Part shown: positions 1 through 5,223 of the stretch, one piece after another | How positions within the stretch are numbered: the first letter of the stretch is position 1 | Layout: every line of letters starts with the position of its first letter | NCBI GenBank assembly: GCA_000004985.1 | Contig: GG739019.1 | Length of the DNA stretch: 5,223 nucleotides | Reading direction: 5' to 3' (one strand) | From: Naegleria gruberi | Lineage: Eukaryota | The notes under the pieces: model-generated | Seen by the model: only the letters and a program-made list of their open reading frames with translations | Told to the model about the DNA's origin: nothing | The model's database searches: none | Made by a program: the position numbers and the translations under genes

Positions 1-501
1 TAAAATATCAATTGTATCTAATAAATTATCAAAATTAATATTTTTTAAAATATTATTTATATTTAATTGTTTAATATTTATAAATTCACCTTCAACTCTA
101 TTTAAAATAAATAAAATACTAAAATTATTTGAATATATTTGTAATTTACCATAAATTAAATAATCAATTATAGATTGTAATGCATCTAATTCTTCATTAT
201 TTAAATTATTTAATAAATATTCATTTTCAATTACATTTTTTAATAAATTTGGTGCCATTTTTACTATAATTGGTTTAAATACAATAATTCCATTTTTAAT
301 TTCATCCATTTCAAATTTTTTTAAAATTACTTTTTTATATTTAATTTCTTTTTTTTTAAATGATTTTTTAATTTCAATTAAATTAATTCCATTTCTATTT
401 GCTATATTTAAATCATTATTTTCTATTTTTATATCTGGATGATTTAATAATAATTTAATTATTTCTAAATTTCTTTCTTTACATGATATACGAAGTGGTG
501 A
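1..501 (-). CDS. Ankyrin-repeat protein, large 3' exon (partial, runs off the window at position 1): 4th ankyrin-like repeat, Lys-rich linker and a BTB/POZ-like region
   Basis: The acceptor is ...aaatatag| at 502-503. The ORF is open for 167 codons with no stop in the extremely AT-rich DNA. It begins SPLRISCKERNLEIIKLLLNHPDIKIENNDLNIANRNGINLIEIKK, continues through FKKKEIKYKKVILKKFEMDEIKNG, and ends IIVFKPIIVKMAPNLLKNVIENEYLLNNLNNEELDALQSIIDYLIYGKLQIYSNNFSILFILNRVEGEFINIKQLNINNILKNINFDNLLDTIDIL. This resembles the hydrophobic core of a BTB/POZ fold (f..lL.fiYtG.l.i...n...lL.aA..l.i..L). The BTB call rests on pattern recognition only. Confidence 0.55.
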
Positions 502-550
502 CTATATTTGGATATTTATTATATTTAGTAATTAACATGCTTGTACTTAC

Positions 551-553
551 ACC
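551..553 (-). other. Candidate 3-nt micro-exon 'ggt' (Gly) flanked by ttaaaatag| and |gtaagtacaa
   Basis: ag at 554-555 lies 3 nt before a GTAAGT donor at 549-550. The module lies in the middle of the 97-nt interval between the third and fourth ankyrin exons. Confidence 0.2.
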
Positions 554-598
554 CTATTTTAAAATAATTTAAATATTTTATAAAAATTAATTACATAC

Positions 599-682
599 TA
601 AATTTACATTAATATTTGAATTATTTAATAATTGTTTAACAATTAAAATATTTCCTAATTTACATGATTTACATAATGCTGT
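599..682 (-). CDS. Ankyrin-repeat protein, internal exon (one ankyrin repeat, 28 codons)
   Basis: The acceptor is ...aaatatag| at 683-684, and a GTATGTAATT donor follows 599. Translation is TALCKSCKLGNILIVKQLLNNSNINVNL. The last 20 nt of this exon plus the first 10 nt of its intron are near-identical to the exon-1/intron-1 junction. Confidence 0.55.
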
Positions 683-734
683 CTATATTTGTAATTTTAA
701 TTGTAAATCATCAACACAATGAAAATATACTTAC

Positions 735-737
735 TAA
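735..737 (-). other. Candidate 3-nt micro-exon 'tta' (Leu) flanked by tttaaatag| and |gtaagtatat
   Basis: ag at 738-739 lies 3 nt before a GTAAGT donor at 733-734. Confidence 0.2.
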
Positions 738-794
738 CTATTTAAATATTTAATTATATAAATAAATAAATAAATATTTTAAAAATGTACATAC

Positions 795-797
795 TCC
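795..797 (-). other. Candidate 3-nt micro-exon 'gga' (Gly) flanked by ttatatag| and |gtatgtacat
   Basis: ag at 798-799 lies 3 nt before a GTATGT donor at 793-794. This is a near-identical copy of the module at 1141-1160. Confidence 0.2.
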
Positions 798-854
798 CTA
801 TATAATTACAATTAATCTATTATTAATATTTAATTTAAAATAAATAATACATAC

Positions 855-857
855 AGT
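855..857 (-). other. Candidate 3-nt micro-exon 'act' (Thr) flanked by tttaaatag| and |gtatgtatta
   Basis: ag at 858-859 lies 3 nt before a GTATGT donor at 853-854. Confidence 0.2.
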
Positions 858-903
858 CTATTTAAACAATTTTACAATAAATTAAATATTAATATTTACA
901 TAC

Positions 904-993
904 ATATTCTTGATTTACATTTATAGTAGGTATATTTAATAATAATTTTACAATTTCTTCTGATCCTCTTTCACATGCAATATATAAAGGTGG
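904..993 (-). CDS. Ankyrin-repeat protein, internal exon (one ankyrin repeat, 30 codons)
   Basis: The acceptor is ...gatgtag| at 994-995, and a GTATGTAAAT donor follows 904. Translation is PPLYIACERGSEEIVKLLLNIPTINVNQEY, which matches the ankyrin consensus TPLHxAxxxGxxxxVxxLLxxxAxVNxxD. The exon is phase 0 at both ends. Confidence 0.55.
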
Positions 994-1047
994 CTACATC
1001 ATTTTTAATTATTAAATATTAATTAAATATTATTAAATATTACATAC

Positions 1048-1050
1048 TTT
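1048..1050 (-). other. Candidate 3-nt micro-exon 'aaa' (Lys) flanked by ttatttag| and |gtatgtaata
   Basis: ag at 1051-1052 lies 3 nt before a GTATGT donor at 1046-1047. A weaker seventh module tatag|cat|gtacgt lies at 1101-1107. Confidence 0.2.
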
Positions 1051-1147
1051 CTAAATAATATATTAAATAAATAAATATATTAATAATAATTAATATACGT
1101 ACATGCTATAATAGGTAATTACATTCCGATACTAATAAATTACATAC

Positions 1148-1150
1148 TCC
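1148..1150 (-). other. Candidate 3-nt micro-exon 'gga' (Gly) flanked by tatatag| and |gtatgtaatt
   Basis: A consensus 3' splice site (ag at 1151-1152) sits exactly 3 nt upstream of a consensus GTATGT donor (1146-1147). The 16-nt core acatactccctatata recurs at 791-806. Confidence 0.2.
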
Positions 1151-1203
1151 CTATATACATCATAATTACAAATTTAAAATATAAATATTAAATAATTACA
1201 TAC

Positions 1204-1392
1204 TAAATTAACATTAATATTTGGAACTGATAATAAAATCTTTATAATTTCTAAATTTGATTTTTCACAAGCAATTGCTAATAAACTTGTTTTACGATCA
1301 GTTTGTAAATCATTAATACAATCTTGTAATTGTAATGTTGATAATGTTGCAATATCATTATTAACAATTGCTTGCAGTGGTGAATTTCCCAT
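1204..1392 (-). CDS. Ankyrin-repeat protein, exon 1 (start codon 1390-1392, 63 codons)
   Basis: ATG sits in an A-rich context (ataaaaaaaATGGga), with an in-frame stop 9 codons upstream. The exon translates to MGNSPLQAIVNNDIATLSTLQLQDCINDLQTDRKTSLLAIACEKSNLEIIKILLSVPNINVNL, which contains an ankyrin-like unit (TSLLAIACEKSNLEIIKILLSVPNINVN). It ends in phase 0 immediately before a minus-strand GTATGTAATT donor (+ strand 1203 downward). Confidence 0.6.
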
Positions 1393-1419
1393 TTTTTTAT
1401 AAATTTGATTTGATTGTCA
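1393..1419 (-). promoter_or_regulatory. 5' leader and translation-initiation context of the ankyrin gene
   Basis: The minus strand reads tgacaatcaaatcaaatttataaaaaaaATGGGA. The stop in the leader is in frame with the ATG, followed by an A-run ahead of ATGG. A TATA-like ttttaaaaata element (+1489-1501) lies about 100 nt upstream. The promoter assignment is inference only. Confidence 0.3.
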
Positions 1420-1557
1420 TTTGATGTGTTGCTCATTTGAATGTGTGCAATGGTTGACATTAATCATGTTTCAATCCATAATTAAAATTCTATTTTTAAA
1501 ACCAAATAGAAGCATCATTTCATATTTGGATCAATATTTCAACAACACCTTCTTCTC

Positions 1558-2705
1558 NNNNNNNNNNNNNNNNNNNNNNNNNNNNNNNNNNNNNNNNNNN
1601 NNNNNNNNNNNNNNNNNNNNNNNNNNNNNNNNNNNNNNNNNNNNNNNNNNNNNNNNNNNNNNNNNNNNNNNNNNNNNNNNNNNNNNNNNNNNNNNNNNNN
1701 NNNNNNNNNNNNNNNNNNNNNNNNNNNNNNNNNNNNNNNNNNNNNNNNNNNNNNNNNNNNNNNNNNNNNNNNNNNNNNNNNNNNNNNNNNNNNNNNNNNN
1801 NNNNNNNNNNNNNNNNNNNNNNNNNNNNNNNNNNNNNNNNNNNNNNNNNNNNNNNNNNNNNNNNNNNNNNNNNNNNNNNNNNNNNNNNNNNNNNNNNNNN
1901 NNNNNNNNNNNNNNNNNNNNNNNNNNNNNNNNNNNNNNNNNNNNNNNNNNNNNNNNNNNNNNNNNNNNNNNNNNNNNNNNNNNNNNNNNNNNNNNNNNNN
2001 NNNNNNNNNNNNNNNNNNNNNNNNNNNNNNNNNNNNNNNNNNNNNNNNNNNNNNNNNNNNNNNNNNNNNNNNNNNNNNNNNNNNNNNNNNNNNNNNNNNN
2101 NNNNNNNNNNNNNNNNNNNNNNNNNNNNNNNNNNNNNNNNNNNNNNNNNNNNNNNNNNNNNNNNNNNNNNNNNNNNNNNNNNNNNNNNNNNNNNNNNNNN
2201 NNNNNNNNNNNNNNNNNNNNNNNNNNNNNNNNNNNNNNNNNNNNNNNNNNNNNNNNNNNNNNNNNNNNNNNNNNNNNNNNNNNNNNNNNNNNNNNNNNNN
2301 NNNNNNNNNNNNNNNNNNNNNNNNNNNNNNNNNNNNNNNNNNNNNNNNNNNNNNNNNNNNNNNNNNNNNNNNNNNNNNNNNNNNNNNNNNNNNNNNNNNN
2401 NNNNNNNNNNNNNNNNNNNNNNNNNNNNNNNNNNNNNNNNNNNNNNNNNNNNNNNNNNNNNNNNNNNNNNNNNNNNNNNNNNNNNNNNNNNNNNNNNNNN
2501 NNNNNNNNNNNNNNNNNNNNNNNNNNNNNNNNNNNNNNNNNNNNNNNNNNNNNNNNNNNNNNNNNNNNNNNNNNNNNNNNNNNNNNNNNNNNNNNNNNNN
2601 NNNNNNNNNNNNNNNNNNNNNNNNNNNNNNNNNNNNNNNNNNNNNNNNNNNNNNNNNNNNNNNNNNNNNNNNNNNNNNNNNNNNNNNNNNNNNNNNNNNN
2701 NNNNN
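1558..2705. other. Assembly gap (1148 N)
   Basis: Uninterrupted run of n; the sequence content is unknown. Confidence 0.99.
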
Positions 2706-3428
2706 ATAACTATTAATTTCTCACAGTTTGAGCAGTAGTACTTAAATAGATTACGTATATATTACAATAGTAGGTAACGTCATTAATAAAGTTAAATGTT
2801 GTGGTATTATTATTTGATCTATCAAGAACGGTATCACATAAGTACATGTCTATTGATTGGTCTTGGAAGATCTTTCTAAATGTTGCTTTGATAATTCTAG
2901 GTTTGACAACTGCAAAACATGGAAAAGAAAGCAAATGATACGATTATTTTTAACTTCACTTTCGCGGAAAATCTTTTAGCTGTTCAGAAGTTTTTTTACG
3001 TTGACAAGTCTCCCAATGCCTAACATTTCTCAAATGGAGGTACATCTCTATTATCTGTTGAAATTTTACTTGAGATATCAAGGGAAATCATGGTGAAAAC
3101 TACAAGATTATCAATGAAGAAAAAATGGAATCGACAATCTTTCATCAGATCTCCAAAGTCTAATCTAATTCATACAGTCAAGCAACTTGGTGCCAGTTCT
3201 GTTCCTCATAATGAATCAACTCATTAAGAACTGTTAAAAAAAACCATGAAACAAACTCAAATGAAAAAAAGGATTTATTGAAATAGAATGTGCTTTTAAT
3301 ACAATTCTTTTTGTTGCTTTGTTTTCTCTTACTCCAATGAATCTTTTCAAATATAAGTTTTAAATATATAAATATATTATAAATTAAATATAAATTAAAT
3401 AAATATTTTAATATATTATTTAATTAGT
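2706..3428. other. Small contig between two gaps. 2706-3350 is a GC-elevated island (about 33-38% GC) with no intact ORF and with fragmented minus-strand ORF pieces. 3351-3428 is ordinary AT-rich spacer.
   Basis: Base counts on 60-nt lines give 32-38% GC, against 10-18% in the flanking non-coding DNA. Three minus-strand stop-free stretches of about 55-75 codons sit in three different frames (3345-3182, 3195-3028 and 2934-2713). No GTAWGT...AG structure links them convincingly. Confidence 0.5.
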
Positions 3429-3478
3429 NNNNNNNNNNNNNNNNNNNNNNNNNNNNNNNNNNNNNNNNNNNNNNNNNN
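3429..3478. other. Assembly gap (50 N), interrupting the RhoGEF coding region
   Basis: Uninterrupted run of exactly 50 n, which suggests a placeholder of unknown true size. Confidence 0.99.
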
Positions 3479-5219
3479 TTAATTTAAATAATTCATTCTT
3501 ATTATTACCTAATAAATAAGATGCAAAATTAGTATATTCTTTTGTAAATAAAATTGAATCATTAAATAAATGAATTTTAGATTCTTGATAATTTTCATTT
3601 AAATTTAATAAATTATTTAATAAATTTGTATTATTATTATTTAAATTATTATTTAATAAATTATTTGTATTATTATTTAAATCATTATAAATAAATAAAT
3701 AAATATTAAAAGAATTTAAAAAACGTCTAGTAGATATAACTAATTTATCAATATTATATCTATAAGCAATATCAATTAAATTTTTTAAATTTGCAATATC
3801 TTTCATTTTTCTATTAATTTCATGTGCTTGTTGTTGTATTTTTTGACATGTTAAATTTAACATTTCATAATCTGAATGATTTTCATTGGTTTCTTTTAAA
3901 ATAGCCTTACTTAATAAACAATATTTTACAATACGTTGACATGGCATTATTAATAAACTTGTTAAATCTAAACCATCTGTACCTTTAACATTTTTACTTG
4001 AATCTTGAATAACTTGTTTAAATTTTGGATATTCTTGATAGGCTTGTGGTAAATTTGTATGAACTGTTCTTGAATAATGTGATTGATAATCTATATATAT
4101 TTTAAAAAATGGTATATATTTATAAATTATATTTCCAATATTATATAAATATAATTCTTTTTTTATAATTTCAGATTGTTCTATTGTTAAATTTATATTA
4201 TTTAAATTATTTATATTTAAATTATTTAATATATTATTTATATATTTAATTAAATCTTTATAAAACATTTGTGAACATTTTAATATATTTTCCAAATCAG
4301 GTGGAAATATTTTTTTAACAAGTACTTGTCCATTTATATTTTTAATTTCACATTCATTAAATTTTAATTGTCCTTGTTGTTCTATATTTGTATAATTGGT
4401 TATTGGTAATACAAATTCATTAAATAATACTTCTAAATATTTCTTATATTTATATTCTGATTCTATTATTTCTAATAATGTATATATACGTTTATCTATT
4501 ATTTTAGATGAATTATCTTTTTTATTACTATTAGAAGTATTAGTAGTAGTAGATGTATTTGTAGTAGTAGATGTATTATTTGTATTATTAGTAGTAGTAG
4601 ATGTATCCTTTTTAGGTGGTGGTGATGATGTAGTATTTAATGTTGGTGGTGGTGTATTATTATTTGTATTATTATTATTTGTATTATTACTTGGTGGTGG
4701 TGCAGTAATAATTTTACTATTTTTATCATCCTTACTATTATTATCATCAATATTATTATTATTTATATTAGTATTATTATTATTATATTCATCAATTTGT
4801 AAATTTGTATTATTTTTCATTAATTCAATAATAATTTTCATTGCAGAATCAATATAATTATTTGATGAAATGTTTAATTTTTTTAAATTTTTTAAATTTG
4901 TTAAATCATCAGGTAATTTTGATAATAAATTGTGTGAAATGTCTAAAATTTTTAAATTTTGTAATTTTGCAATATCAGGTTGTAATGCAATTAAACTATT
5001 ATTATTTAAATATAATTCTTCTAAATTAATACATTGTAATATATTTTGTGGTAATATTTCTAATTTATTAAAACTTAAATCAATAATTTTTAAATTTTTT
5101 AATTTATGAAAATCATTAAATAAAGAAGTAAAATTATTTTTTTTTAAAATTAAAATTTCTAAATTAATAAAAACATTTGTAAATTCATAATGAATTGATG
5201 ATATTTTGTTATTGATAAA
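3479..5219 (-). CDS. LRR-DH-PH Rho-family guanine-nucleotide exchange factor (partial; 5' end open at the window edge, 3' end lost in the gap)
   Basis: Continuous minus-strand ORF of about 580 codons. The supplied 473-aa ORF (3420-4841) extends another 126 stop-free codons upstream (4842-5219). That upstream stretch encodes clean leucine-rich repeats. DH-domain conserved regions CR1-CR3 and the Dbl-family PH signature are present; the motif strings are given in the domain features below. Codon usage is tta/aat/aaa/caa/ggt/cca. Confidence 0.8.
3480..3599 (-). other. Probable N-terminal part of a PH domain following the DH domain (truncated by the gap)
   Basis: NENYQESKIHLFNDSILFTKEYTNFASYLLGNNKNELFKL resembles the beta3-beta4 signature (r.lFLFnD.Ll..K) of PH domains that follow DH domains. 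It is separated from the DH domain by an N-rich loop. Confidence 0.4.
3756..4505 (-). other. Dbl-homology (DH / RhoGEF) catalytic domain
   Basis: CR1 reads RIYTLLEIIESEYKYKKYLEVLFNEFVLPI. CR2 reads IFPPDLENILKCSQMFYKDL, followed by IGNIIYKYIPFFKIYIDYQSHYSRTV. CR3 reads LTSLLIMPCQRIVKYCLLSKAILKET, which matches the canonical Lxs.Ll.PvQRi.KY.LLL.elLk.T. The C-terminal helix reads AHEINRKMKDIANLKNLIDIAY. Confidence 0.8.
4512..4814 (-). repeat. Asn/Thr/Pro/Ser-rich low-complexity linker (about 100 codons) between the LRR and DH domains
   Basis: The translation is NNNNTNINNNNIDDNN...APPPSNNTNNNNTNNNTPPPTLNTTSSPPPKKDTSTTTNNTNNTSTTTNTSTTTNTSNSN. The DNA consists of (aat)n, (act/aca)n runs and three ggtggtggtg (PPP) blocks. 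Confidence 0.8.
4531..4608. repeat. Imperfect tandem minisatellite (unit of about 21-27 nt, agtagtagtagatgtatttgt, 3 copies) inside the coding linker
   Basis: Direct reading shows agtagtagtagatgtatttgt, then agtagtagatgtattatttgtattatt, then agtagtagtagatgtatcc. On the minus strand this encodes STTTNT repeats. Confidence 0.6.
4842..5219 (-). other. Leucine-rich repeat region of the RhoGEF (at least 5 LRRs), upstream of the first in-frame Met
   Basis: The minus-strand translation is FINLEILILKKNNFTSLFNDFHK / LKNLKIIDLSFNKLEILPQNILQC / INLEELYLNNNSLIALQPDIAKL / QNLKILDISHNLLSKLPDDLTNL / KNLKKLNISSNNYIDSAM. This fits LxxLxLxxNxLxxLPxxL with a 23-24 aa period. There is no Met in the region, and an in-frame tga lies at 5220-5222. 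Confidence 0.7.
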
Positions 5220-5223
5220 TCAA

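Follow-up and report, generated by a model that had tools for sequence, protein, structure and literature searches.

A GC-elevated non-coding contig between two assembly gaps, tentatively read as part of a repeated or mobile element

What kind of DNA makes up a contig of 723 nt that lies alone between two assembly gaps, is richer in G and C than the genes on either side and contains no intact open reading frame? The question is raised by a stretch of 5223 nt (the window), in which two runs of N isolate the contig 2706-3428 (the island; Table 1). The island separates the 3' end of an LRR-RhoGEF gene from the 5' end of an ankyrin-repeat gene. The initial annotation had described a 723-bp contig between gaps of 1148 N and 50 N, and our coordinates (1558-2705, 2706-3428 and 3429-3478) agree with that layout. 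It had also reported that the island lacks an intact ORF; the longest ORF inside has at most 73 aa.

Table 1. Features of the window, listed by position.
Feature	Coordinates	Strand	Remarks
Ankyrin-repeat gene, running off the window	1-1392	-	ATG at 1392-1390; Pfam Ank_2 2.5e-20 on the spliced model
GC-elevated non-coding end of the left contig	1393-1557		165 nt; 25.7% GC; directly upstream of the ankyrin ATG
5' gap	1558-2705		1148 N; edges both in complex, GC-elevated sequence
GC-elevated homogeneous non-coding block (core of the finding)	2706-3349		30% GC; no coding signal
AT-only contig tail	3350-3428		2.6% GC; host-typical low complexity; abuts the 50-N gap
3' gap	3429-3478		50 N; separates the AT-only tail from the truncated RhoGEF ORF
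LRR-RhoGEF gene, 3' end lost in the gap	3479-5222	-	Pfam RhoGEF 2.6e-25, LRR_8 9.1e-16

The GC content of the whole contig is 27.1%, made up of 30.1% in the first 645 nt (2706-3350; A 227, T 224, C 98, G 96) and 2.6% in the last 78 nt, with A and T equal in the tail beyond 3349. The left and right flanking contigs have 16.6% and 16.1% GC, the exons within them 13.6-23.5% and intron-dominated stretches about 12-15%; the richest 645-nt window anywhere in the flanks reaches 20.8%. An elevation above the flanks, exons included, had been noted before and is borne out by these values (30.1% against a maximum of 20.8%). The level then given, 33-38%, was too high, as 37% is reached by the single best 100-nt window of the island only. 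The right-hand edge is sharp and lies at about 3349: in 30-nt windows the GC fraction is 0.20-0.47 until about 3335 and 0.00-0.03 from 3351. Within the block, GC is spread more evenly than expected (variance below binomial) and no pure A/T run is longer than 11 nt, where the flanks have some of up to 69 nt. The block is a real feature: it is homogeneous, has a sharp edge near 3349 and differs in composition from the DNA around it as foreign sequence would.

Symmetrised dinucleotide odds also separate island and flanks, in a comparison that is confounded in that the flanks are mostly exons and introns and the window holds one intergenic region: TA stands at 0.67 in the island and 0.95 in the flanks, CC/GG at 0.82 and 1.48, AG/CT at 1.05 and 0.70, and CG at 0.55 and 0.32. 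With odds that differ to this degree, the island is more than host spacer DNA with a few extra G and C. A content of about 25-30% GC may nevertheless be common in intergenic or promoter DNA of this organism. Sequence with 30% GC where non-coding DNA has 3-15% is possibly young at this position, under selection or misplaced.

One alternative, in essence the main reading of the initial annotation, is coding sequence that is old and heavily decayed, whether it came from a host gene, a transposon or a horizontally acquired gene. A GC content above that of the host exons, together with the missing intact ORF, speaks for such an origin. Its principal argument was that the minus strand carries three stop-free stretches in three different frames, but two of these, 3423-3181 and 2943-2716, share one common frame and only 3169-3023 lies in another. 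The longest stop-free runs over the six frames have 76, 67 and 56 codons. A run of 76 codons arises in 18% of dinucleotide-preserving shuffles (p=0.18), and the combined length of the three longest runs is reached in 8% (p=0.08). Stop codons number 14, 12, 15, 15, 23 and 11 per frame in 215 codons, and a lowest count of 11 among six frames corresponds to p=0.36; the mean of 15 per frame is slightly below the 17 of mononucleotide shuffles, a small point in favour of decayed coding sequence.

Codon periodicity gives a clearer answer. Flanking exons have a GC3 of 2-5% (more extreme than in Dictyostelium discoideum) against 14-35% at the other codon positions, and the phase chi-square for four flanking exon regions gives p = 5e-20, 3e-4, 7.5e-5 and 2e-9. 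In the island, the three codon phases have GC fractions of 0.30/0.31/0.30 (p=0.97), and the period-3 power of its 150-nt sub-windows lies at 0.3-1.75 throughout, compared with 3-26 in most exon windows. A recently decayed host gene would keep phase-shifted blocks with period 3; there are none in the island, and the reading as former coding sequence is therefore unsupported. Decay deep enough to have removed every such trace would be expected to have pulled GC down to the 3-12% of the host's non-coding DNA. Sequencing-error frameshifts were rejected as an explanation of the frame changes, because these do not fall at long homopolymers. No ORF beyond chance appears in the island under genetic codes 4, 6 or 10, and codes 27 and 31 are uninformative because no stops are left under them. 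The ORF fragments of the island are chance occurrences, and the island is non-coding by every test applied.

Homology searches lead to the same result. Ten stop-free stretches from both strands, used as Pfam queries, returned two sub-threshold and unrelated matches only (TRAPPC10, 14.1 bits; ThiI_fer, 16.6 bits). Among 5.8 billion proteins, word-seeded searching with all sixteen stretches of 25 aa or longer, joined into one concatenate, found nothing at E<=10; phmmer, run exhaustively against 1.84 billion representatives, produced a single match, P0002 (E=2.7e-4). We rejected P0002 as a homologue, since it is a 13-fold tandem-repeat protein, in which 11/37 residues are matched per repeat, and since the alignment spans an artificial junction of the concatenate; the match is spurious. 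Remnants of transposon proteins (reverse transcriptase, integrase, tyrosine recombinase, gag or transposase) were detected in no frame by Pfam or by either protein search. For lack of recognisable protein remnants, an autonomous transposable element of the DIRS, Ty3/Skipper, TRE/non-LTR or DDT/Tdd type was also rejected.

The resemblance of the island to a unitary or processed pseudogene is thus confined to the missing intact ORF and the intergenic position; unlike such pseudogenes, it lacks a parent homologue and residual codon periodicity, and its stop-free runs are no longer than chance would give. On the strength of these three findings, the earlier description of the island as showing the pattern expected of decayed coding sequence does not hold, and neither a pseudogene nor the coding region of a transposable element, for which the protein searches gave no credible homologue, is supported; we regard both as improbable. 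For annotation, the island should not be labelled a pseudogene or transposon relic from its stop-free stretches, because these are at chance level and give no ground for the label.

Could the island instead hold a living gene, specific to this lineage, with atypical codon usage and broken by sequencing errors or unusual splicing? On the plus strand, stretches of 38 codons (with an ATG ORF of 34 codons) and 67 codons follow one another in one frame with a single TAA between them (2907-3224), and the model of the neighbouring ankyrin gene suggests that extreme fragmentation into exons is tolerated. Against this, the island has no periodicity, no homologues and no ORF beyond chance in the genetic codes tested, and it contains no introns in the style of the host (no GTATGT/GTAAGT ... 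AG units and no AT-only stretch longer than 11 nt). We regard a gene of this kind as very improbable.

Structural and other stable RNAs were also sought. ARAGORN finds 0 tRNA genes in the island, neither a tRNA nor a tRNA-derived SINE being indicated, and Rfam searches of window and island at E<=10 return noise only, with no rRNA family. The best Rfam match, at 3153-3084 on the minus strand, resembles SNORD73 (24.2 bits against a gathering threshold of 42, E=0.12-0.86). We took a box C/D snoRNA to be indicated by a C box RUGAUGA separated by 55-130 nt from a D box CUGA, together with a terminal stem and a bit score that exceeds the gathering threshold of Rfam. The segment has a UGAUGA C-box-like motif near its 5' end and a 4-bp terminal stem, as in SNORD73, but AUGA takes the place of the D box CUGA and the score is below gathering; it was judged noise. 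A motif scan of the island found no canonical pair of C and D boxes. Folding energy compared with shuffles reveals no excess of RNA structure on either strand (z=0.0 and +1.2).

Two short motifs in the island recall 16S rRNA. At 3253-3265 on the plus strand, AAACTCAAATGAA is identical over 13 nt to the conserved segment 906-919 of E. coli 16S rRNA, and GTGCCAG is, by eye, also reminiscent of a conserved 16S motif. Alignment to E. coli 16S rRNA with shuffle controls gives p=0.05 and 0.25, and to 23S rRNA p=0.58. A fragment of rRNA or organelle rRNA was rejected, the identity of AAACTCAAATGAA being within the range of shuffles and no rRNA covariance model matching. We take the 16S-like motifs to be a coincidence.

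The sequence across the 5' gap bears on two further alternatives. The left contig ends in non-coding DNA that is itself GC-elevated and has no significant period-3 signal (p=0.2). A 45-codon open frame on the plus strand runs from 1421 into the 1148-N gap. Alignment detects no sequence similarity between 1393-1557 and the island. With both edges of the gap GC-elevated, the two segments suggest one block of about 2 kb, of which 1393-1557 may be the other end, and give weak support to the placement of the contig.

One alternative that follows is unique, functional non-coding DNA, in which selection would hold GC at about 30% against AT-biased mutation; it could be, for example, a promoter with the 5' leader for the ankyrin gene, or a long non-coding RNA. 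The elevated segment 1393-1557 adjoins the ankyrin ATG and may extend over the gap into the island; all visible intergenic space except the AT tail shares the elevated composition; and the depletion of TA and the even spacing of GC are unlike neutral decay in this genome. The folding and Rfam results given above are evidence against a functional RNA, and AT-rich protists would not usually be expected to carry about 2 kb of intergenic DNA with double the GC of their exons. We consider functional DNA unlikely. In its most extensive form, the proposal would make 1393-3349 (about 2 kb, interrupted by the gap) a single functional non-coding locus, as a lncRNA gene or as one large element regulating the ankyrin gene, which is distinctly unlikely. 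Selection would then keep both the 30% GC and the depletion of TA where neutral DNA is at 3-12% GC. Should the block prove to be truly single-copy and conserved, it would stand as a rare instance in which non-coding DNA is kept GC-richer by selection although the genome is extremely AT-rich.

The second alternative is that the contig does not belong here. It could be mis-scaffolded or chimeric, for example a piece of high-copy rDNA spacer, nuclear plasmid or eukaryotic contaminant brought in through weak mate-pair links or AT low complexity. A contig of 723 nt bounded left and right by gaps, of which one is a 50-N placeholder, a dinucleotide signature unlike that of the flanks and no sequence overlap with either neighbouring contig (by alignment to both flanks) all fit such an error. 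Several observations point the other way. The tail, at 2.6% GC, is typical of the host. It aligns, as low complexity, to introns and AT tracts of both flanks, as no other part of the contig does, and it ties the contig to this genome or to an equally AT-rich one. The facing end of the left contig is GC-elevated as well. The island is not rRNA, blastn against plasmids, phages and E. coli genomes gives no match to it, and neither metagenome nor GTDB contigs contain its exact 27-mers or 22-mers (the 27-mer is missing from viral contigs too), in DNA collections that do not include this organism. A bacterial, vector or phage contaminant was rejected, there being no DNA match and no ORFs with homologues. 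The host-like tail and the elevated end that faces it across the gap weakly support correct placement, and a misplaced contig is unlikely.

The likeliest of the readings, which we propose tentatively and which falls short of an even chance, is that the spacer between the two genes received a repeated or mobile element and that the island is its non-coding part or a remnant of it. The island could then be, for instance, a terminal repeat, an untranslated region or a non-autonomous element. Its insertion would have introduced DNA of about 30% GC or more, and the extreme AT-biased mutation of the host would have yet to erase the inserted composition. The assembler would then have left a contig of 723 nt inside the scaffold, unjoined to its neighbours because the element is repeated elsewhere and because, on the right side, it meets an AT-only low-complexity tract. 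The contigs break at 1557 and 2706 in complex, not low-complexity, sequence, and contigs that end in complex sequence are typical of assemblers at repeat boundaries; a repeat may, with the same reservation, account for these ends too. We infer the repeat or mobile origin, the recency of the insertion and the role of repeats in causing the gaps. The one window offers no positive sign that the sequence is repeated or mobile, which counts against a repeat. Alignment of the island to itself and to the flanks reveals no internal repeat in the island and no terminal direct or inverted repeats among island, left block and flanks, where the ends of an element may fall in the gaps.

Comparison with known systems is consistent with this proposal in part. 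The non-coding parts of mobile elements that serve as reference (LTRs of Skipper and DGLT-A, inverted terminal repeats of DIRS-1, the A, B and C modules of TRE5-A, and non-autonomous elements) form a dictyostelid and protist set that may not be the host's group. In D. discoideum, repeats are GC-richer than the AT-rich spacer around them. The island shares with such parts a GC content above that of AT-rich spacer, the lack of an ORF, a sharp boundary and breaks in the assembly. It differs in that the window shows no terminal repeats, target-site duplication, poly(A) tail, nearby tRNA gene or second copy. The island is also like the small repeat contigs found in the gaps of draft scaffolds, which are below a kilobase, lie between one sized and one placeholder gap and have complex ends; here the placement is weakly backed by the matching composition across the 1148-N gap, and repetition is a candidate property only. 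The biological importance of the island itself is little.

The gaps have a more practical consequence for the LRR-RhoGEF gene. Its reading frame is unbroken from 5219 to 3480, with a GC3 of about 3%, and the PH-like C-terminal part of the protein stops at '...NELFKL' at 3479, where the 50-N gap cuts it. The ORF 3420..4841 terminates in 17 X followed by 'TN*', an ending that is an artefact because the ORF was read across the 50-N gap. The truncation of the gene and its false ending had both been recognised in the initial annotation, correctly in our analysis, and the gene model deserves a flag as 3'-truncated by a gap. Among 5.8 billion proteins, the LRR-RhoGEF protein has a single match, a partial protein of Acytostelium subglobosum with 32% identity, and no close relative. 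Between the LRR and RhoGEF domains, 4454-4753 (minus strand) encodes a low-complexity linker rich in Thr, Asn, Pro and Ser. This stretch has the strongest period-3 power of the window (up to 26) and its strongest GC skew (+0.8), and its local GC of 30% equals the mean of the island.

The ankyrin gene on the other side may have an unusual structure. As a query, its protein gives generic repeat matches of at most 45% identity, plus one of 68% over 6% of the query. The intron/exon model, which was checked by script, has ten putative GT...AG introns of 42-57 nt in tandem, with 5' ends GTATGTAA, GTAAGTA or GTACGTA and 3' ends ATAG, TTAG or GTAG. They would enclose seven putative micro-exons of 3 nt (1150-1148, 1105-1103, 1050-1048, 857-855, 797-795, 737-735 and 553-551), each predicted to supply one residue in a loop between repeats, as in NVNL-G-H-K-PPLYIAC, NQEY-T-G-L-TALCKSC and NVNL-G-SPLRISC. 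Each cluster of micro-exons may instead be one long intron, the frame being kept either way. The 3-nt micro-exons, if real, would be far more unusual than the island.
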